In this document: positions 26,941 to 61,943 of the stretch, one piece after another | How the letters are laid out: each line of letters opens with the position of its first letter | Numbering within the stretch: the stretch's first letter is position 1 | Assembly (NCBI GenBank): GCA_013815775.1 | Contig: JACDFN010000001.1 | Coordinates: 109,883-173,882 of the forward strand | Direction of reading: 5' to 3' | DNA from: Candidatus Saccharimonadota bacterium | GTDB taxonomy: Bacteria > Patescibacteriota > Saccharimonadia > Saccharimonadales > UBA10212 | Length of the DNA stretch: 64,000 bases | Program-made: the position numbers and the translations under genes | The notes under the pieces: model-generated | The model's database searches: none | Told to the model about the DNA's origin: nothing | The model's input: only the letters and a program-made list of their open reading frames with translations

Positions 26941-27041
26941 TTTGAAGGACAACCAAGGTTTTCCTTCAACGCCGCTTCTGGAATGAATCCAGATTCGCCT
27001 AGCGGCGAACCGCGACTGCTACCTTTCCTTATAGCGATAGC
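26941..27041 (-). ncRNA. Three-way-junction RNA element forming the 5' leader of tRNA-fMet
   Basis: Read on the minus strand: GCTATC..GGTAGC hairpin, AGCAG, P1 GTCGC/GCGGC, P2 TTCGCC-GCTA-GGCGAA, P3 CTGGA-TTCAT-TCCAG, P4 TTGAAGGA..TCCTTCAA ending 7 nt before the tRNA. Confidence 0.5.
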
Positions 27042-50444: not shown

Positions 50445-51959
50445 ATGTTAGCACTATACATTGCGCTGGCAATTGCTGGCGTGTTTGCTGGGGCTGGTGG
50501 AACTTATGCCTACACCCGCCGAAGTGGTTCTGTTGCCGCAGAAGCTGCAAAGAAAGAATTGGCGAAAGCTAAAAAGGAAGCCGAAGCCTTAGTAAAAAAA
50601 GCCCAAGAAGAAGCTGAAGGTCGGGTTGATGAGGCCCGTAAAGAAGAGAAGAAACGACGAGACGAAATTAAAGACATAGAACAACGGTTGCTAAACCGCC
50701 AAGAGTCTTTAGACAAAAAACTTGATGACCTAGATAAGCGGGCCGATGGTCTAAGAAAAGCCGAAGACGAAGTCGAGGGCTTAAAGAATGAAATTAGGGA
50801 AATTCGGGCTAAACAACAAGATAAGTTAGAGAAAATTGCCAAACTTACCAAGGCTGACGCGGCCGAGAAGCTGATGCAAATGACCGAGCGAGACATTAAG
50901 AATGACCTTGTTGGGCTAGTTGTTAAGTTGCAAAATGACGCAAAGGACCAGGCCGAAGAATTATCTGCCATGATCTTAGCCACTACCATGGAGAGAATGG
51001 CCAGTGAAGTAACCTCGGAGCGTACCGTTACGGCAGTCCGGCTAGAAGATGAAGAAATGAAGGGGCGGATTATCGGTAAAGAGGGCCGTAACATTCAAGC
51101 TTTGCAACGGGCTACTGGGGTCGATATTTTAGTAGACGAAACCCCAGGTATGATAATTCTATCTAGCTTTGATCCCGTACGCCGTGAAGTAGCGCGGCAG
51201 GCCATGGAGATGCTACTAAAAGACGGTCGGGTACATCCTGGACGCATCGAAGAAGTAGTCGAAAAAGCTCAAAAGCAAGTACAAAAAGACACAGTTCGAG
51301 CTGGTGAGGACTCTGCCCGCGAAGTCGGTGTAATAGGCATGCCCAAAGAACTTTTACAACTGCTTGGTGAACTTAAGTACCGTACCAGTTACGGCCAAAA
51401 TGTTCTGAAGCACAGCGTTGAGATGGCTCAGCTGGCTGGCGTACTGGCCGATGAGCTTGGTGCGGATGTAAAAACCGCAAAATACGCCGCGCTGATGCAC
51501 GATGTAGGTAAGGCTCTGAGCCATAAAGTAGAAGGCAAGCACCACCACATTAGCGGGGAGATGCTACGTAAATACGGAGCCCCTGAAGCAGTGGCACATG
51601 CCGCCGAAGCCCACCACGATGACATGGAAGCCACTACCGTTGAAGCTTTAGTGGTTCGGGTAGTGGATGCTATTTCAGGTGCCCGCCCCGGTGCCCGTAA
51701 TATTAGTGCCGAAAATTTTGCAGAACGTATGAAAGACTTGGAAAACACTGCTCTTGGCTTTGACGGAATTGAAAAAGCTTACGCCATTTCCGCTGGCCGT
51801 GAAGTTCGAGTGTTTGTGCAGCCGAAAGATATAAACGATCTTCAAGCTATTAAGCTGGCTCGCGATATTGCTAATAAAATTGAATCTACAATGCAGTACC
51901 CCGGCACAATTAAGGTCAATGTTATCCGCGAAACCCGAGCTATTGAGTTCGCCAAGTAG
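50445..51959 (+). CDS. rny: Ribonuclease Y
   Basis: N-terminal TM, long coiled coil, KH domain (GRIIGKEGRNI), HD domain (HSVEMA..LMHDVGK). Confidence 0.93.
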   Translation: MLALYIALAIAGVFAGAGGTYAYTRRSGSVAAEAAKKELAKAKKEAEALVKKAQEEAEGRVDEARKEEKKRRDEIKDIEQRLLNRQESLDKKLDDLDKRADGLRKAEDEVEGLKNEIREIRAKQQDKLEKIAKLTKADAAEKLMQMTERDIKNDLVGLVVKLQNDAKDQAEELSAMILATTMERMASEVTSERTVTAVRLEDEEMKGRIIGKEGRNIQALQRATGVDILVDETPGMIILSSFDPVRREVARQAMEMLLKDGRVHPGRIEEVVEKAQKQVQKDTVRAGEDSAREVGVIGMPKELLQLLGELKYRTSYGQNVLKHSVEMAQLAGVLADELGADVKTAKYAALMHDVGKALSHKVEGKHHHISGEMLRKYGAPEAVAHAAEAHHDDMEATTVEALVVRVVDAISGARPGARNISAENFAERMKDLENTALGFDGIEKAYAISAGREVRVFVQPKDINDLQAIKLARDIANKIESTMQYPGTIKVNVIRETRAIEFAK

Positions 51960-52175
51960 CCAGAACTTTGCACCGCCTACCCCTGCTGCCTGGCTGAGCC
52001 AGACACCCGGCTAGGCTTTTGGACGAATTACTGCGTCAGAAACTGCGTTGCTCGTTCGCAGTATTCTAATACAGCTCACTGCGCTACTTATTTCTTCCTT
52101 GTACTGCATCCAAATGCAGAGCTCTGGCTACATCATCTATCTTTCCAAACGCGTAGCTAGTTGTTCGCGCTAGGA

Positions 52176-52209: not shown

Positions 52210-52317
52210 CTGTTGCAGTTCTTTTTTAGGGAAAGGTAGCAGCCGCGGTCCGCCATAGGCGGATTCGGATTCATTCCGAAAGCGGCGTTGAAGGAAACCC
52301 GCATGGTTGTCCTTCAA
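52210..52317 (+). ncRNA. Three-way-junction RNA element forming the 5' leader of tRNA-Pro(UGG)
   Basis: P0 CTGTTGC/GTAGCAG; P1 GCCGC 52242-46/GCGGC 52282-86; P2 TCCGCC-ATA-GGCGGA 52249-63; P3 TCGGA-TTCAT-TCCGA 52265-79; P4 TTGAAGGA 52288-95/TCCTTCAA 52310-17. Confidence 0.5.
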
Positions 52318-54704: not shown

Positions 54705-54782
54705 TGGGGCGAATGATGGGTCTTGAACCCACGACCTTCGGGACCACAACCCGACGCTCTAACCAACTGAGCTACATCCGCC
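54705..54782 (-). tRNA. tRNA-His (anticodon GTG) with encoded G-1 and CCA
   Basis: G-1 + GCGGATG/CATTCGC + C73; anticodon arm TCGGG-TTGTGGT-CCCGA. Confidence 0.92.
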
Positions 54783-54788
54783 GTAAAA
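54766..54788. repeat. 23-bp direct repeat, copy 1 (tRNA-His 5' end plus 6 nt of leader)
   Basis: ACTGAGCTACATCCGCCGTAAAA, identical to 56855-56877. Confidence 0.9.
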
Positions 54789-54858
54789 TACGGGTTAATT
54801 TTAACCTGTTTTAGGTGAAAAAACCAGATGCAGTGTTGGGGTTCAAGCTAGAAATTGT

Positions 54859-56583
54859 TTACTGCAGGGTGGAGCCGCAAACGGCTGGAGGCTGTACGAT
54901 TGAGTAGGACTGTGATTGTTGTGGGCCAAGGGTCATTACCTGCATATTGCCGTATAAGCTTGGCGGCATATACGCATATGTTACATCGCCCCAAGGGTAG
55001 GTTATATTACTGAATATATCTGACTTCGGGTCCAGAGCATACAGGGTCAAGCCACCCCCTCTGTCGCCTAAGTACATTCCGTAAGTTTGCATGGCCTTAG
55101 CGATTATTTTTTGCCAGCTGTTTAGGCCCAGGCTGTTTAAGTCCAAGGCCGGGTTAAGCCGTACTCTTGCTCCTTCAGGTATCGTACCCGCCGCTGTACT
55201 TTGACCATCGCTGGTATATGAAGGCAAGACGGGCCCGCCGCCCTTAACGTACTGTGCGTCCATACTGAAGACTAGGGCGTGGTTTATCACCCCAGCTGCC
55301 ATTTCACTTGGCAAAATCAAACCGCCGCCCAGCGCGAAGCTAGAGCCACGGGTGGGGATAGCCGGCTTGATGAAGGTGCCGGTTTCAGTTTTTAGTAGTG
55401 CGTTAGCAACCCCGGCTGACCATGCTCCGGTGCTCGATTTGGCGGCTTTCCAAAAGTCGTACTCGCAGTTGGTCGACTTATCTATTATTAACATGTGAGC
55501 ATCTGTGCCGTTAGCGGGAACGGCATTGGCTGGGATAGGTACGTTTAAGAACTTAGTCGCCCCGCCATTGTAGTTAGTGGTAAAGCTAACTGTGGTTCGA
55601 GGGGTGTTAGCATCGGCATAATACGCCGCTACCGAATAGGATTTAACCGCGATAGGCGTACCAGCACTTGAGTTAGCGGAGCCTAAGAGGCTTTGTACCA
55701 TGGCGGAAGAATTGGGGTCTATTGTCGCTGTAGAAGGAATAGGCAAGTTCCAAAAACTTGACGCTGAGTAAAAGAATGCACTACTTGGAGGCGGAGGTGG
55801 CGGTGGAGGCGTAGCAGCAGTAACCGTAACGGTGGTACTAGCATTGGCACTGCCCCCACTCCCACTGCAGCTCAAGGTATAGGTGCTGGTAGTATTTAGA
55901 GCTCCGGTAGAGACTGAACCACTAGTTGGCTGAGCTCCACTCCAAGCCCCACTGGCACTGCAGCTAGTAGCATTGGTAGAGTTCCAGGTCAGCGTAGAGG
56001 GTGATCCCGCACTCACCGAGGTTGGTGTAGCGCTCAACGAGATTGTTGGCGCTGGTGTACCTACCGATACTCCGTAAAACCGACTAACATCTAGGTAAAG
56101 ATCAGTTGTGCAGGCACTACCGCCGGTGTAGCTAATATATACGTTACGGTTACCACTAGCTGCATTGCTACTAGCACTGTAGGTAGTCCAACCGCTGGAG
56201 GAAACGGTAGTACTAATAAGTTGAACTCCACTCAGTTCAACTCTCATGGATGGCCATTTACCATGGCACTTGGTGGCTTTAGCCACTAGGCTATAACTAC
56301 TAAGCGATGACGGCAGTGAAACAATACCCTGAATTACACCAGAACCCCTCAACCTAACAGCCTTACCGCTACTGGCGTAAGTATCGGTGATAATACTGCC
56401 CCCACTAGGCAGGCTCATTTGCTCTGCTTCTAAACTAGCCACCAAAGGCCCAGCTGCAAAAGTCCTATATAGAAAAAAGCCCCCAATGACCGCAAACAAC
56501 ACAGCGAATACAATCATCCGACGCTTAGAGAAGGAAGGATTACTATTTAATAGTTTTGTTTTTAACATTCGTAGTCTCTTCAT
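54859..56583 (-). CDS. Secreted protein: N-terminal anchor, CBM-like domain, Ig-like module, poly-Pro linker, unknown C-terminal domain
   Basis: 574 aa; anchor FAVLFAVIGGFFLYRTFAAGP; LEAEQMSL..SGKAVRL lectin/CBM-like; Ig-like module shared with 57017-59260; PPPPPPPPP. Confidence 0.6.
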   Translation of the reverse strand: MKRLRMLKTKLLNSNPSFSKRRMIVFAVLFAVIGGFFLYRTFAAGPLVASLEAEQMSLPSGGSIITDTYASSGKAVRLRGSGVIQGIVSLPSSLSSYSLVAKATKCHGKWPSMRVELSGVQLISTTVSSSGWTTYSASSNAASGNRNVYISYTGGSACTTDLYLDVSRFYGVSVGTPAPTISLSATPTSVSAGSPSTLTWNSTNATSCSASGAWSGAQPTSGSVSTGALNTTSTYTLSCSGSGGSANASTTVTVTAATPPPPPPPPSSAFFYSASSFWNLPIPSTATIDPNSSAMVQSLLGSANSSAGTPIAVKSYSVAAYYADANTPRTTVSFTTNYNGGATKFLNVPIPANAVPANGTDAHMLIIDKSTNCEYDFWKAAKSSTGAWSAGVANALLKTETGTFIKPAIPTRGSSFALGGGLILPSEMAAGVINHALVFSMDAQYVKGGGPVLPSYTSDGQSTAAGTIPEGARVRLNPALDLNSLGLNSWQKIIAKAMQTYGMYLGDRGGGLTLYALDPKSDIFSNITYPWGDVTYAYMPPSLYGNMQVMTLGPQQSQSYSIVQPPAVCGSTLQ

Positions 56584-56796
56584 AGATTAGAGTTATATAT
56601 TCAATAATTATTGTTATGTTTATTAGGGGGCGTGTCAATAGGGAGGGGAGTCTCGCAAGCTGCCAGTATTATACTTATAAGGCTTATAGGTGCTTACGAA
56701 CCAAATTATCAGTCGGCCCAATATAAAAACTTTGATTATCACACTTAAGAATATATATGAAGAACATGTACCTAATCCTGAGCTTGTCGAAGGACG

Positions 56797-56871
56797 GTAC
56801 CCCAGGAGGGATTCGAACCTCCGGCCTTGACGTTAGAACCGTCTTGCTCTATCCACTGAGCTACATCCGCC
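56797..56871 (-). pseudogene. Chimeric tRNA-like gene: tRNA-His 5' end fused to a decayed tRNA-Arg(TCT)-like body
   Basis: 5' GGCGGATGTAGCTCAGT identical to tRNA-His; anticodon loop GTTCTAA; T arm and 3' acceptor (GGTTCGAATCCCTCCTGGGGTACC) resemble the genuine tRNA-Arg at 61791; 5' GCGGATG cannot pair with 3' CTGGGGT; no CCA. Confidence 0.6.
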
Positions 56872-56877
56872 GTAAAA
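56855..56877. repeat. 23-bp direct repeat, copy 2
   Basis: ACTGAGCTACATCCGCCGTAAAA, identical to 54766-54788; 2089 bp apart. Confidence 0.9.
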
Positions 56878-56885
56878 CAGCTAGT

Positions 56886-56914
56886 ATTATACTTTTTAAC
56901 AGATGATGTAGCAA
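56886..56914 (-). promoter_or_regulatory. Near-consensus promoter driving the chimeric tRNA-like gene
   Basis: Minus strand TTGCTA (56914-56909), 17 nt, TATAAT (56891-56886), about 8-nt leader. Confidence 0.6.
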
Positions 56915-57016
56915 ATACCGATCTTTGCGTTTAAACATTGACAGCAATAAGCTTTCAGTATAATAATTATGCTTAAGTATAAAATAATCATGCAACCAAG
57001 CGATCAAGGAAACTCA

Positions 57017-59260
57017 ATGACACAAAAAACACCTAATCGACGGATTAAGGAATTTAAAAGTAGAATTCCATTTTCCAGTCGTCAACTTATTATCTTCGCC
57101 CTAATCTTCGCAGCCATTGGAAGTTACGTCTTATATAGGAGTTTTGCGGCCAGCCCGGCTGGCACAGCTCACGTTTTCGTCTCCCCGAGCGGCTCTGATT
57201 CAGGTACTAACTGTAAGCGTTACGCCACACCCGTTGCTTACCCTGGTGGCGCTGTCTGCGCCAGCATTACTAAGGCCTACCAGCTTGCCCAAGGGGGTGA
57301 CACTATCGATGTTCAAGGCGGTACATACTCTGGCTACGAAACGCTAGCTAATGATGCCAGTAAGAACTCTACACCCATAACTATCCGTGGCGCCCAAGGC
57401 TCTACCGTAACCCATAACAATGGTATAGCGTTCGGCAACGACCAGACTAATACAAATTCCGCCGACAATGTAGTCCTCCAAGATATGACTTTTAAGGGCA
57501 CCATAACCCTATGGAGCACAGCCGACAATGTCCAATTAGTTAACCTTAAAGCCGACATCTTCGATATCTTCGGCGGCAATGGCAGTGGCGTAAAGGGCGG
57601 TGACTACGGCCCATGTCAGGCACCAGCCCAAGGCTCTTGTCTAGCTAGGATTATCGGCAACAACATAACTGTAGACGGTACCGCCATCCACCATATGTCT
57701 TCCACCGACTTAGTTAACTACCACGTAGACGGCATGTTCGTCCGCGGCTGCACTAACTGCACAGTTAAGAACACTGACTTCTGGGGCAATATGATTACCA
57801 ACATCAGGGTCCAAAACTGCTGTCAGCTGCCAGCTAACACCAACCTCACTCTTGAGAATAACTGGTTTGGTGTACCGATAGAGGGCGATAATGTAACAGG
57901 GCGGGGCAATGCACTCGACATAGACAATGATGTGCCTGGACTAAGAATTAAATACAATACCTTCCATCCCCAAACCGGAATAAGTATCTGCGGTGCTTGG
58001 GCGTGTAATCCGGCTGACGGCGGCTGGACCGCTACCGATACCCAGATTATTGGTAATCTTTTCTCCCGGGCATTCTGTGCTTCCGGTGCGGTATATCGCA
58101 ATAACGTCTATCGAGCTTTCAGTGAGTATGCCGGTTCCGAGTCCTGTGGCACTGGCGAGAAACTAGTAACTGACTTTGGACTGGTAAATTCTGGCCCATA
58201 CAGTAATACGCCCAGCAGTCCAGACTTTCACCTGACATCTAGCTCACCAGCCATTGGAGCAGGTGACCCCACCAACTACACAGCTACTGACTATGACGGC
58301 CAACCCCGCCCCCAGGGCACTGCTCCAGATGCCGGCGCCGACGAATACTCCACTGGTACTACACCACCTCCACCTCCTCCCACAGCACCAACAGTCTCTC
58401 TCTCCTCTAGTCCTACTTCTGTAGCTTCCGGCTCTGCCTCTACACTAACCTGGAGTTCCACAAACGCTACATCATGTACCGCCTCCGGATCCTGGAGTGG
58501 GGCTAAAGCAACTTCCGGATCACAGTCCACTGGTAACCTAACCTCTAGCTCTACTTACAGCCTAGCTTGTACCGGCACTGGTGGCAGTGCTTCTGCTAGT
58601 ACTACGGTTACGGTCAGCGGTACTTCTGCCGACACCACTCCACCCTCCATTCCTACCGGCTTAGGTCACACCACAACTACCGACTCTTCACTCAGTTTGG
58701 TATGGAATGCATCGAGTGACAATGTTGGCGTAAAGGGCTACAAGCTCTACCGTAACAACGCTTTGATAACTTCACCTACCAGCACCTCATATGTCGACAG
58801 CGGCTTAAGCGCTGGTACTAGCTATAGTTACGCTGTTTCAGCATTCGATGCAGCTGGAAATGAAAGTGCTAAGAGTGCTACTGTTAGCTTTACAACGGCG
58901 ACAAGTACAAGTATCCTGCCGCTTCCACCGCCCAATGACACCGTAGCTCCGAGCACTCCAGACGGATTTAAAGTAACAAGTAGCGGTAAAACCAGCGTAT
59001 CCTTAGCCTGGAACGCCAGTACCGATATCGGTGGCTCTGGCTTAGCCGGATACAAGCTTTACCGGGGTAGTACTCTTGTTTATACTGGGCCTAACTTAAG
59101 CTTTAACAGCACAGGTCTCAGTTCAAAAAGCAGCTATACGTACACAGTGCACTCCTATGACAAAGCTGGCAATATGTCCAATTCAAGCATTAAAATCTGT
59201 GTTAGCAAGTTTGGCTTCTGGAGCAACATTACACGCAGCCGTGGCTGGGAATATTGTTAA
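57017..59260 (+). CDS. Secreted protein: N-terminal anchor, right-handed beta-helix, poly-Pro, Ig-like module, two FN3 domains
   Basis: Anchor FALIFAAIGSYVLYRSFAASP; beta-helix repeats (NIRVQNCC, GNNITVDG); FN3 (PPSIPTGL..YKLYRN; PSTPDGF..YKLYRG). ATG 57017 follows AAGGA; the ORF is open from 56969. Confidence 0.65.
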   Translation: MTQKTPNRRIKEFKSRIPFSSRQLIIFALIFAAIGSYVLYRSFAASPAGTAHVFVSPSGSDSGTNCKRYATPVAYPGGAVCASITKAYQLAQGGDTIDVQGGTYSGYETLANDASKNSTPITIRGAQGSTVTHNNGIAFGNDQTNTNSADNVVLQDMTFKGTITLWSTADNVQLVNLKADIFDIFGGNGSGVKGGDYGPCQAPAQGSCLARIIGNNITVDGTAIHHMSSTDLVNYHVDGMFVRGCTNCTVKNTDFWGNMITNIRVQNCCQLPANTNLTLENNWFGVPIEGDNVTGRGNALDIDNDVPGLRIKYNTFHPQTGISICGAWACNPADGGWTATDTQIIGNLFSRAFCASGAVYRNNVYRAFSEYAGSESCGTGEKLVTDFGLVNSGPYSNTPSSPDFHLTSSSPAIGAGDPTNYTATDYDGQPRPQGTAPDAGADEYSTGTTPPPPPPTAPTVSLSSSPTSVASGSASTLTWSSTNATSCTASGSWSGAKATSGSQSTGNLTSSSTYSLACTGTGGSASASTTVTVSGTSADTTPPSIPTGLGHTTTTDSSLSLVWNASSDNVGVKGYKLYRNNALITSPTSTSYVDSGLSAGTSYSYAVSAFDAAGNESAKSATVSFTTATSTSILPLPPPNDTVAPSTPDGFKVTSSGKTSVSLAWNASTDIGGSGLAGYKLYRGSTLVYTGPNLSFNSTGLSSKSSYTYTVHSYDKAGNMSNSSIKICVSKFGFWSNITRSRGWEYC

Positions 59261-59316
59261 GAGTACTTCTTTACTGAAACATTATAAACACAAAACTATA
59301 GTTAAGAATGCATCTT

Positions 59317-59375
59317 AGAGATGCATCTGCCGAAACGCCACTAGTTACTTGCACGAAAAGATGATGTAGCAAACT
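59317..59375. repeat. Degenerate third copy of the tRNA 5'-end/leader/promoter segment
   Basis: Exact 15-mer AGATGATGTAGCAAA (59359-59373 = 56900-56914) plus flanking partial identity (GAGATGCATCTGCCGAAAC..CTAGT versus GAGCTACATCCGCCGTAAAAC..CTAGT). Confidence 0.4.
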
Positions 59376-59582
59376 CTTGGGTCGGGTTTATGCTACCCAG
59401 CTGAAAGTATTCTAGTATAAACCAATACGCTAATGCTTACTATTGACAAATATTATAAACAGTGATAGAATGCGCTGGTAACTTCTGTGAGAGGGAATGT
59501 ATATCAACTAATTAACGTTTCATGCGTTACGGGTTGTCGGTTCATTGTAAATGCCCGACACTCGAAATAGAGGTAGGTTTAT

Positions 59583-60437
59583 ATGAGCAGAAAAAACTTT
59601 ATCAACTTAGTAGGTGCCGTCATACTTGGCGTGTCTAGCATATTTTGGGCTAGTTCGGCAGTATCGGCCCAGACGAATAGCGACCTCGAAAAGGTGACGA
59701 TCTGCCATCGCACCAATAGCGTAACAAATCCATATCGACAAATAACTGTAGATAAATCAGCCGTTGATGGCCATGGTGAAAATGACCACACACAGCACAC
59801 TGGACCAGTAGCCACTTCGCAAGAAGTTGCCCAAGGACTTAAGGACGAAAAAAAGAAATGGGGCGATATCATACCTCATGGCCTTAACTGGACGACTGTT
59901 GGTATGGCAGTATATAACAACGGCTGCCAACCTCTACACGCTCCAGAAGATCCACCAGTACATCAAACCCGTGTAAAAATCTGTCATGCCACTGGCTCTG
60001 AGAGTAATCCCTACGTGGAAATAACTCTTAACGCCAGAGGGGTAATTAACGGGCATGTTGGCCATGACCATCAAAACGGTGAAGATATCATCCCACCTTT
60101 TGAGTACATGGATAAAAATAAAGAAACAAAGAACTTCCCTGGTCAAAACTGGAACACTAACGGACAGGCAATCTACAATAATCACTGCAAGAAGCCTGTA
60201 CATGTTGTAGTGCAACCTCCTACACCACCCCCAACTCCCCCAGCTGGCCACGTAAATGGTGCCTCAACCACCACCACTGGCGTTGTACTCGGAGCTCAAG
60301 TTCAAGCACCAGTTGGAGCTGTTAGCGCAGGAGCCGGTGGAGCTGTCGGTACAAGCATGGGTGCTATATTCGGACTTTCTAGCTCTCTTGGTGTACTTGG
60401 CCTAGGACTTCGCCAAATGCGCAAGTTCGGTCTCTAA
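59583..60437 (+). CDS. Secreted protein with two Cys/His-rich repeats and a sorting-signal-like C-terminus
   Basis: Signal peptide ..SSAVSA|Q; repeats KVTICHRTNSVTNPYRQITV..GHGENDH and RVKICHATGSESNPYVEITL..GHVGHDH; Pro-rich stalk; C-terminal hydrophobic stretch plus RQMRKFGL. Confidence 0.55.
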   Translation: MSRKNFINLVGAVILGVSSIFWASSAVSAQTNSDLEKVTICHRTNSVTNPYRQITVDKSAVDGHGENDHTQHTGPVATSQEVAQGLKDEKKKWGDIIPHGLNWTTVGMAVYNNGCQPLHAPEDPPVHQTRVKICHATGSESNPYVEITLNARGVINGHVGHDHQNGEDIIPPFEYMDKNKETKNFPGQNWNTNGQAIYNNHCKKPVHVVVQPPTPPPTPPAGHVNGASTTTTGVVLGAQVQAPVGAVSAGAGGAVGTSMGAIFGLSSSLGVLGLGLRQMRKFGL

Positions 60438-60471
60438 GCAGTAAATAAAAGTAAAATAGCGTTAGTTGAAT

Positions 60472-61392
60472 ATGAGCGCTAATAAAAAAACACTATCCAA
60501 AACAAGAAAGCCGGCGAGCAGCCGGCTTTCTTTACATGCAGCTCAAAAAAAGCAGCAAAAGCCTAAGACTTCGCGGGTTAAGTATTTACATGTTCCCCTC
60601 ACTACTTCGCGTGTTTTACTTATCTCACTTAGACAGTTTAGAACCAGCAAAGCTAAGCGCTCAAAGCGCTACAAGCAGATTGTTATTACCACTCACTTCT
60701 TACCGTATAAAGAAATAGCCATTGTTCAACGGCGTGGCAAAAGAACCGCAAAAAAATCACGAAAGGTCTTATTTAATCGCCAAACTGCTGCAGCCTTACT
60801 ATTAATAATTTCCGGAATTGCAGGAGCTATATACTTTAGCCTGAACCTAAGTAAAGCTCCCAATCTAGAGCTTAGCTCTAACCCAGTACCTACTTCCGCA
60901 GTCGTTCAGCCTCCCCAACCAACTCTCCCGAGTACGCTACCCAAATCAGAACCTACTCGCGTACGTATTGCCCGGCTCGAAATTAACACCACTCTAATGC
61001 CAGTTGGGCGTAATTCTGACGGAACAATGGAAGTACCTACCCGTTACGATATTGCCGGCTGGTATAATTTAGCTCCAACACCCGGAGAACGGGGGCCGGC
61101 TATTATAGTAGGGCATGTTGACAGCCCACGCGGACCAGCCATTTTTTGGCGCCTCAGGGAGCTTACACCGGGCGATATCGTAGAAGTTGATCGTGCCGAT
61201 GGTACAACTGTTAAGTTTAAGGTAGACAGTGTTCAACAATACCCCCAGGCCAGTTTTCCAACGCAGGAGGTATATGGGAACATTGATAATGCAGGGATAA
61301 GACTAATCACTTGTGGTGGGGTATTTGACAGGAATATTCATAAGTACAGCCATAACACCGTAGTTTTCGGCTCTATGCTTACAGAACAGTAA
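60472..61392 (+). CDS. Sortase (class F-like) with long basic N-terminal region and TM anchor
   Basis: RIARLEINTTLMPVG, GPAIIVGHVDS (His), RLITCGG (catalytic Cys); ATG 60472 (TTG 60466 also possible). Confidence 0.8.
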   Translation: MSANKKTLSKTRKPASSRLSLHAAQKKQQKPKTSRVKYLHVPLTTSRVLLISLRQFRTSKAKRSKRYKQIVITTHFLPYKEIAIVQRRGKRTAKKSRKVLFNRQTAAALLLIISGIAGAIYFSLNLSKAPNLELSSNPVPTSAVVQPPQPTLPSTLPKSEPTRVRIARLEINTTLMPVGRNSDGTMEVPTRYDIAGWYNLAPTPGERGPAIIVGHVDSPRGPAIFWRLRELTPGDIVEVDRADGTTVKFKVDSVQQYPQASFPTQEVYGNIDNAGIRLITCGGVFDRNIHKYSHNTVVFGSMLTEQ

Positions 61393-61465
61393 CGTCAACA
61401 TATAAGAGAATATTTTGGTACAGCTTAGTTACGAAGTTAGAACTGCGTTACTGTGCAAGTAGGTA

Positions 61466-61759
61466 CTAGGCGTACCAAGTTATTATCCCAACACCTCTTA
61501 ATAAGTGAAAAGTAAAAAAGACCAATAGCCCCAAGGCATTAGAAAAAAAACAGAGCCTTATGAATGTATTTGTATCGTATTTTTTTAAGTACCTTATAGT
61601 GCCAAGAAATACTACTATTACCGCGAGTAACCCTGTTAAAACAAACATCGACCAGTCCAAAGGGAATATGCCAGAATCTCCCCAATGGATTATGCCGACA
61701 ACCACTGCTACTACTTGTAAGGCAAAGAGGGCCATGATGGAATTAGCGATAAATTTCAT
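61466..61759 (-). CDS. Hypothetical small membrane protein (97 aa, 3 TM)
   Basis: ORF plus hydrophobic profile only. Confidence 0.45.
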   Translation of the reverse strand: MKFIANSIMALFALQVVAVVVGIIHWGDSGIFPLDWSMFVLTGLLAVIVVFLGTIRYLKKYDTNTFIRLCFFSNALGLLVFFTFHLLRGVGIITWYA

Positions 61760-61790
61760 TTAAGTATCATAGCATTCATAACTTTTACAT

Positions 61791-61867
61791 TGGTACCCCG
61801 GGAGGGATTCGAACCCCCAACCTAGTGGATAGAAGCCACTCGCTCTAATCCATTGAGCTACCGGGGC
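61791..61867 (-). tRNA. tRNA-Arg (anticodon TCT), CCA encoded
   Basis: Acceptor GCCCCGG/CCGGGGT; anticodon arm AGTGG-CTTCTAT-CCACT. Confidence 0.92.
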
Positions 61868-61868
61868 T

Positions 61869-61943
61869 TGGTGCGGGATACCGGAGTCGAACCGGTCTCC
61901 TCAGTTTGGAAAACTGATATATTAGCCGATATACGAATCCCGC
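61869..61943 (-). tRNA. tRNA-Gly (anticodon TCC), CCA encoded
   Basis: Acceptor GCGGGAT/ATCCCGC; anticodon arm TCAGT-TTTCCAA-ACTGA; 1 nt from tRNA-Arg; TATAAT 12 nt upstream. Confidence 0.9.

Follow-up and report, generated by a model that had tools for sequence, protein, structure and literature searches.

How does a tRNA-shaped sequence with a promoter of its own come to carry the 5' end of one tRNA gene on the body of another, and is the result still a tRNA, a scar of recombination, or an RNA put to some other use? The sequence in question, here called the chimera, lies on the minus strand of a 64,000-nucleotide stretch of contig JACDFN010000001.1 from a Candidatus Saccharimonadota bacterium (assembly GCA_013815775.1; hereafter the window), in the spacer between the intact tRNA-Arg and tRNA-His genes. 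An initial annotation had offered the last two answers as alternatives. We favour a modified form of the first of these, namely that the element is, with a probability of about three in four, a non-functional hybrid tRNA pseudogene that would have arisen by recombination or template switching from an imported second tRNA-Arg(UCU) gene. Its parts and the intact genes with which they are compared are given below; comparison loci in other genomes are labelled L001-L049 throughout.

56870->56795, minus strand: tRNA-shaped pseudogene of 76 nt with a His-type 5' acceptor strand, Arg(UCU)-type sequence from the D loop onward and the end ACCG (Rfam, ARAGORN and folding).
56877->56855, minus strand: 23-nt His-identical block TTTTACGGCGGATGTAGCTCAGT, made up of 7 nt of leader including G-1 plus positions 1-16; a 100% repeat match to 54788->54766.
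56854->56795, minus strand: positions 17-76, which are Arg(UCU)-specific and belong to the 'standard' type of Patescibacteria (anticodon-arm identity and alignment).
54705..54781, minus strand: resident intact tRNA-His(GTG), source or twin of the 23-nt block (ARAGORN; Rfam, 66.6 bits).
61791..61943, minus strand: resident intact tRNA-Gly(TCC)-tRNA-Arg(TCT) pair, the upstream border of the variable spacer (ARAGORN and Rfam).

From 56914 to 56795 the minus strand has the layout TTGCTA-17-TATAAT-ACTAG-CTGTT-TTACG followed by the 76-nt body, which reads 5' to 3' GCGGATG TA GCTC AGTGGATA GAGC A AGACG GTTCTAA CGTCA AGGCC GGAGG TTCGAAT CCCTC CTGGGGT A CCG. The anticodon is TCT (56837->56835), as first read, and most of the structural faults then listed are real. 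The acceptor strands GCGGATG and CTGGGGT form only three of seven pairs (G1-U72, C2-G71 and G7-C66), and the Rfam alignment marks four non-pairs in the acceptor, one in the anticodon stem and one in the T stem. The single T-stem mismatch is A51-C63, and the 3' terminus is ACCG, with CCA changed to CCG, whereas all nine called tRNAs of the window end in CCA. The Rfam tRNA model (RF00005) gives the chimera 36.7 bits (gathering score 29), while the nine real tRNAs reach 56-77 bits, and ARAGORN, which finds those nine, leaves it uncalled at both default and relaxed (-ps) settings, the outcome that had been anticipated for a pseudogene. The 7-bp acceptor stem, finder score, five-pair T stem and encoded CCA of a working tRNA are thus all wanting. 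Because the new 5' strand cannot pair, an RNA made from this sequence would have no acceptor stem, would not be a normal RNase P substrate and could be neither charged nor used in translation.

The obvious threat to this conclusion is a paired acceptor stem that had been overlooked. A partner strand was sought in the leader and trailer by eye, in 76- and 106-nt folds and with relaxed ARAGORN, and none was found. At 80% thresholds ARAGORN returns one 92-nt fold only, which takes ATACTAG of the -10 box as its acceptor strand; such a borrowing from a promoter is implausible, and we reject it as a true stem. The minimum-free-energy fold of the chimera contains no cloverleaf and is no more stable than shuffled sequence (z = -0.34), whereas an intact relative folds as a cloverleaf in the same test. 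An Rfam E-value scan of 56700-57000 yields no family but tRNA; mir-4079, snoRNAs and ssNA-helicase appear as weak noise far below their gathering scores.

The 5' end is that of a tRNA-His gene. Identity with the 5' end and leader of the resident tRNA-His, seen from the start, is exact over 23 nt; this is the longest exact run shared with any tRNA of the window, the next best being 16 nt with Met1. Thirteen of the 23 nucleotides fall outside the generally conserved D stem, and the 'ttacg' leader is confined to the His genes of the clade (the window, L003, L044 and L049). The identity stops within GTAGCTCAGT (positions 7-16), a 10-nt stretch common to tRNA-His and tRNA-Arg. The chimera consists of two contiguous segments that match different tRNA genes and are joined in this stretch; the 40-mer spanning the junction is GGCGGATGTAGCTCAGTGGATAGAGCAAGACGGTTCTAAC. 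Beyond the 7 nt of leader the sequence upstream of the chimera no longer resembles that upstream of the resident tRNA-His, which is orthologous to the upstream region of the L003 tRNA-His. We considered that the chimera might have kept the ancestral tRNA-His promoter, and rejected this because it is the resident upstream region that is the L003 orthologue.

The remainder belongs to a recognisable family. The anticodon arm AGACGGTTCTAACGTCAAGG was scanned over 185,579 species-representative genomes and met at 38 loci, almost all in Saccharibacteria with a few from other Patescibacteria phyla. All 38 are intact tRNA-Arg(TCT) genes with an acceptor of the GCCCCRG/CYGGGGT type, CCA being encoded in nearly all, and the pattern of an intact standard-type gene is GCCCCAG...CTGGGGTACCA. 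The intact ancestral type that related genomes were expected to yield is therefore at hand in 38 genomes, and none of the 38 carriers of the arm has the chimeric form. The chimera possesses the family's arm (the 20-mer AGACGGTTCTAACGTC), the TCT anticodon and Arg-type D and T loops, and in place of the GCCCCRG 5' strand it has GCGGATG. Over positions 7-75 it is 88-96% identical to the family, the whole anticodon arm (A-AGACG-GUUCUAA-CGUCA, with A27-A43 and G32) being the same, and its CTGGGGT fits the GCCCCAG subtype of L009, L015 and L038; it differs in the His-type 5' strand, the unpaired A51 and the CCG end, for which reasons we regard it as a derivative of the family and not a functional member. 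The A27-A43 non-pair had been counted as a further defect. The non-pair is there, but it is native and not decay, as is G32, since both are the same in the 38 intact genes.

Which Arg gene was involved can be read from the same alignment. From column 8 onward the chimera is identical to L015 at 66 of 69 positions and to L009 at 65, but to the resident tRNA-Arg (61867) at only 55 of 70, with a longest exact run of 15 nt (GGTTCGAATCCCTCC). The likeness first noted to the resident gene at 61791 is thus correct as to the Arg(TCT) type and moderate in degree, the standard type being closer. Indeed, the resident gene has the anticodon loop CTTCTAT, as do the genes at the Gly-Arg position in the relatives L003, L047 and L049. 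Set against 37 aligned standard genes, the chimera is unusual at positions 3-5 (His type, with T at 6), C47, A51 and G76. Its bases at positions 3-5 occur in at most one of the 37, C47 is found also in L009, and the partner of A51, C63, is unchanged, leaving A51 and G76 as the derived changes. A third tRNA-Arg(TCT) variant, GGAGA CTTCTAA GCTCA with anticodon-stem mismatches 27-43 and 31-39, is present in the closest relatives, at L001 13243-13296 (-) and L044 11099-11175 (-). The RNase Y of the window (gene at 50445-51959) assigns it to Candidatus Saccharibacteria. Among genomes whose RNase Y is 85-92% identical to this one there are three distinct Arg(UCU) bodies, and such variety suggests repeated gene replacement.

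The foreign character of the Arg part extends into the sequence that follows it.

56794->56703, minus strand: conserved non-coding trailer directly 3' of the pseudo-tRNA, recognised by homology to L015.

This trailer, TCCTTCGACAAGCTCAGGATTAGGTACATG, matches L015 (3299->3203) with 86% identity over 92-97 nt (E about 1e-17 to 1e-26), its 92 nt corresponding to L015 3294->3203, and is unrelated to the trailer of the resident tRNA-Arg. At L015 3203-3330 (-) it is preceded by a tRNA-Arg remnant with deletions, more decayed than the chimera (..GGTTCTAAC..GGTTCAG..ACCA), which keeps the anticodon loop, part of the T loop and ACCA. An intact tRNA-Arg is found 1.2 kb upstream of the remnant, and the interval holds an M23-peptidase-like open reading frame (ORF) and a 21-nt tRNA 3'-end repeat. 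Both layouts, in two unrelated assemblies, have a dead Arg copy attached to the trailer and an intact copy upstream.

That comparable debris stands beside the same trailer in an unrelated assembly bears on whether the chimera exists at all, as a tRNA-His contig of one strain could have been joined to a tRNA-Arg contig of another. The source is a metagenome assembly, and in the Logan assembly of SRR11719867 there are breaks to either side of the locus. However, the normal overlap of Arg and His here is 10 nt, far under any assembler k-mer or overlap length, and a misjoin would require the tRNA-His upstream region ahead of the 23-nt block, where a different sequence stands. We consider an artefact very improbable.

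The chimera is set in a part of the genome that changes readily.

54782..61790, both strands: variable spacer from tRNA-Arg to tRNA-His, 7,009 bp, which holds the chimera (ORFs, domains and comparison with Saccharibacteria).

The gene order Gly(TCC)-Arg(TCT)-spacer-His-VIT1 is kept in relatives and is widespread in Saccharibacteria, Gly-Arg-[spacer]-His being found in more than 20 of them, and the conserved neighbourhood includes genes for RecA and the type IV pilus. Elsewhere in the group the spacer itself is as short as 96 bp (L038) and as long as 4.25 kb (L022), and its contents are unrelated. In the window its ORFs encode a 574-aa secreted protein (-; p574), a 763-aa fn3 protein (+; p763), a 284-aa protein (+; p284), a class F sortase (+) and a 97-aa protein (-), and the chimera sits between the first two, which are divergently transcribed and partly paralogous, having a signal-anchor region in common and an Ig-like domain 43% identical. 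No tRNA-like sequence is present in the Arg-His spacer of L003, L044, L047 or L049. Searches for the junction pattern in Joint Genome Institute (JGI) metagenomes, for the promoter-plus-body pattern and for the anticodon-arm 20-mer in viral contigs each gave 0 matches. The hybrid is therefore specific to this lineage, absent from the locus of these four relatives and with no second copy found.

Could the spacer have produced it unaided? An unequal crossover between sister chromosomes, pairing the resident tRNA-His with the resident tRNA-Arg (direct repeats with a common D stem), would have duplicated the spacer in tandem, and it predicts the topology that is seen: intact Arg, spacer, a His5'/Arg3' hybrid, spacer and intact His, all on one strand. 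The resemblance between p574 and p763 would also fit. The Arg part is nevertheless 79% identical to the resident Arg against 96% to the foreign type, and on this identity a simple tandem duplication is rejected. The trailer, moreover, is that of L015 and not the resident one, and the likeness to the resident His upstream region ends after 7 nt. The genes for p574 and p763 are divergent, not tandem, no other repeats join the two halves of the spacer, and relatives lack the hybrid. Taken together these observations make a crossover in situ improbable.

A second explanation of the same layout is that an integrase brought in a genomic island, now 56.8-61.8 kb, which entered tRNA-Arg and displaced the old target copy, leaving the chimera as a relic on the attachment-site (attR) side. 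A direct repeat of the Arg 3' part does surround the sortase/fn3 block (56 nt, 79% identical, 4,996 bp apart), and the displaced-looking copy has the 'ancestral' standard body and the trailer shared with L015, where tRNA-Arg 3' repeats occur in series. In other Saccharibacteria, small elements visibly target the 3' ends of tRNA-Arg and tRNA-His. But the Pfam and NCBIfam searches found no integrase or recombinase domain in any spacer ORF, only fn3, class F sortase and a weak CBM60, and the cargo consists of ordinary genes for surface proteins and a sortase. The repeat lacks an exact core, the longest exact run with the resident Arg being 15 nt, and a promoter, a full D arm and a His-type 5' strand are unexpected in a displaced attR fragment. 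We rate this origin similarly improbable.

The contents of the spacer say little of a donor. The best non-self match of p574 is a 53% paralogue on the same contig, the matches of p284 are at most 64% identical and partial, some of them from Actinobacteria, and protein searches with p574 and p284 yielded no donor locus. The 284-aa protein lies beside the class F sortase (59583-61392, +) and has homologues in Pseudarthrobacter, Arthrobacter and Leucobacter. Actinobacteria are the typical hosts of Saccharibacteria, and these homologues hint at gene transfer from host to epibiont into the spacer.

Although the body is damaged beyond use as a tRNA, its promoter is not, and it is accompanied downstream by further promoter-like sequence.

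56914..56876, minus strand: tRNA-class promoter, with -35 box TTGCTA at 56914->56909, a 17-nt spacer, -10 box TATAAT at 56891->56886, five nucleotides and CTGTT at 56880->56876.
56676->56657, minus strand: the -10 region again, as a second copy, AAGTATAATACTGGC, 218 nt further downstream, in the interval that separates the trailer from the 574-aa gene.
56638->56610, minus strand: further promoter-like site TTGACA-17-AACAAT from the promoter scan, following the second -10-region copy.

The near-consensus TTGCTA-17-TATAAT promoter of the initial annotation scores 10 of 12 in a promoter scan and proves to be more than a sigma-70 look-alike. The signature TATAAT-N5-CTGTT occurs at three sites in the 64 kb against 0.07 expected, namely before the chimera, tRNA-Pro(TGG) and the Gly-Arg pair, and it is found upstream of many tRNA genes in other Saccharibacteria; on these grounds we assign the promoter to a tRNA class. 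Its best local match is the promoter of the L011 tRNA-Arg(TCT) (TATAATACCAGCTGTT), with a score of 29 against at most 25 for about 150 other tRNA upstream regions. The promoter of the chimera is similar as well to those of the His genes of L044 and L001, and the L011 match appears too weak to choose between an Arg and a His origin for the region upstream of the 23-nt block. As the promoter is intact, a transcript is probably made. The site scan found no terminator-like site between the chimera and the 574-aa gene, so the transcript may run into that gene.

Several short repeats accompany these sites. The -10 region (AAGTATAATACTRGC) at 56875-56894 (-) is repeated at 56657-56676 (-), right after the trailer, and the two copies could mark the edges of an inserted tRNA-plus-trailer fragment. 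The 14-mer TTGCTACATCATCT, which includes the -35 box of the chimera (56901-56914, -), recurs exactly at 59359-59372 (-) between the 763-aa and 284-aa genes and with one mismatch at 52125-52138 (+), about 60 nt upstream of the tRNA-Pro(TGG) -10 box, making three sites where 0.49 are expected. Both tRNA-Met (26934) and tRNA-Pro(TGG) (52325) are immediately preceded by one and the same hairpin-forming leader, GCGGCGTTGAAGGAAA..GGTTGTCCTTCAA, at 26960-26975 (-) and 52282-52297 (+) respectively. These two exact copies compare with 0.05 expected, and the leader may be a common processing or regulatory hairpin.

An intact promoter of this class is what might be looked for if the chimera had been kept as a functional tRNA-like RNA, either as an uncharged decoy or sensor for ArgRS or modifying enzymes, or by forming a structured 5' leader on the 574-aa mRNA. 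The D, anticodon and T arms show little damage, substitutions in the body are few, and the way to the 574-aa gene shows no terminator. If the leader role were true, expression of a 574-aa surface protein would be coupled to the control of a stable-RNA, growth-rate promoter. The junction is found nowhere else, however, and the four relatives lack the element; the fold is no better than that of shuffled sequence, the only Rfam match is to tRNA, and the T-stem and CCA defects resemble decay. Known tRNA-like non-coding RNAs (YrlA-type Y RNAs and tRNA-derived regulatory RNAs) show conservation between species and fold into a stable, defined structure. The chimera would resemble them as a transcribed RNA with tRNA-like arms outside decoding, but it is a singleton without a stable fold, and YrlA gave no match here. 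A non-translational role, the other reading initially proposed, is unsupported for want of conservation and of an alternative fold, and we think it quite improbable; no function need be assumed for the transcript.

We return to the hybrid pseudogene. The recombination scar initially proposed is supported by the end of the His block within the shared GTAGCTCAGT, the hypervariable spacer, the absence of the element from four relatives and the unique junction. What requires revision is the Arg partner, which is not the resident gene but a second, standard-type gene with its own trailer. On this evidence, a second standard-type tRNA-Arg(UCU) with a tRNA-class promoter and its own flank would once have lain inside the Arg-His spacer, most likely brought in with DNA of another Saccharibacterium. 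Saccharibacteria are naturally competent (PMC10633639), which together with the nearby RecA and type IV pilus genes offers a possible route for foreign DNA. The imported copy would have been redundant with the resident Arg. Recombination or a template switch with the tRNA-His, 2 kb away on the same strand, would then have replaced the last 7 nt of the leader and the 5' acceptor strand, the right-hand end of the swap falling within the shared 10 nt (positions 7-16). G51A, which breaks the T stem, and A76G, which turns CCA into CCG, would represent further decay after or alongside this loss. The few substitutions and the intact promoter indicate that inactivation was probably recent.

Some observations weigh against this account. 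The left end of the His block has no flanking homology, so the swap was not a classical, homology-driven gene conversion. Since the promoter resembles those of both Arg(TCT) (L011) and His genes (L044 and L001), the upstream part could instead be His-derived, which would make the element a true two-gene junction and not a short patch. A body with few substitutions behind an intact promoter is also what would be expected of a selected, functional RNA; from a trailer about 14% diverged, some five substitutions are expected in the body if it were neutral and two to three are seen, a difference that is not significant. No donor genome was identified. The junction is, in addition, uncovered by the independent Logan assembly, whose contigs stop at about 52,400 and restart at about 58,450.

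Hybrid tRNA pseudogenes at the borders of acquired DNA are already known. In Rickettsia peacockii, a chimeric tRNA gene borders the tra cluster at a junction of laterally acquired DNA (PMC2791219). The chimera of the window is like such hybrids in having halves from different tRNA genes, in lying at the edge of strain-specific DNA near tRNAs and in being unusable as a tRNA. It differs in having no integrase or conjugation genes, in a junction placed in the D stem rather than in the usual 3'-half attachment core, and in keeping a full tRNA-class promoter. The attL/attR sites at which genomic islands and prophages integrate into tRNA genes (Williams 2002, cited in PMC2791219) share with our case a partial second tRNA copy kilobases away, in direct orientation, at a variable locus; here, however, there is neither an exact core nor an integrase, and instead of a 3' fragment the second copy is a full-length sequence whose 5' strand is foreign. 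What is unusual in the window is thus only the D-stem junction combined with the retained promoter.

The comparison of Arg-His loci also brought to light elements of another kind in other genomes. Nine genomes have an exact 16-22-nt repeat of the tRNA 3' end some 160-200 nt beyond tRNA-Arg(TCT), and three have one beyond tRNA-His. In eight genomes the unit between is an element about 140 nt long, conserved and structured, which lies some 20-60 nt past the tRNA and is preceded by a terminator-like hairpin. It opens with the 5' strand of the cognate T stem; three conserved hairpins replace the T loop, and after these come the 3' half of the cognate T loop, the 3' strands of T stem and acceptor, and CCA, so that its last 19-22 nt exactly repeat the end of the cognate tRNA, CCA included. 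Compensatory changes are seen in 19 of 42 predicted pairs. A covariance model of the element (R1) finds nine strong copies, with 121-150 bits, always beside tRNA-Arg(TCT) or tRNA-His.

After tRNA-Arg(TCT), R1 copies: L043 5142-5281 (-); L013 4895-5034 (+); L027 1449-1593 (-) and 1265-1409 (-), two copies in tandem; L018 1961-2102 (-); L037 5199-5340 (-).
After tRNA-His, R1 copies: L035 5956-6094 (+); L012 4458-4597 (-); L019 4510-4645 (-).
Other inserts on the minus strand, about 160-220 nt long, with weak or no relation to R1, whose last 16-21 nt exactly repeat the tRNA-Arg 3' end: L008 852-1032; L015 4310-4527; L044 10911-11098; L031 396-573; L030 4347-4520.

The R1 element matches no Rfam family, its core was not found in viral contigs, and the model has no match in the window. 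No integrase-like ORF stood out near the copies by ORF starts, no domain scan having been run. The element is previously undescribed, and it may be a miniature tRNA-targeting integrative or mobile element or an RNA gene. Among the other inserts, those of L008 and L015 include the T-arm sequence in inverted form (GGGAGGATTCGAAC), which could pair with the terminal repeat. This side finding may outdo the chimera in interest.

Taken alone, the chimera is of minor importance. For annotation, the practical consequence is that the chimera should be flagged as a tRNA pseudogene and not counted as a second tRNA-Arg, and that A27-A43 and G32 of Patescibacteria tRNA-Arg(UCU) should not be scored as defects. 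For the biology of the group, the chimera would serve as a dated marker of the Arg-His interval of Saccharibacteria as a hotspot for the splicing in of foreign Saccharibacterial DNA, which here carries surface proteins and a sortase, and it indicates that conserved tRNA sequence can act as a joining point.

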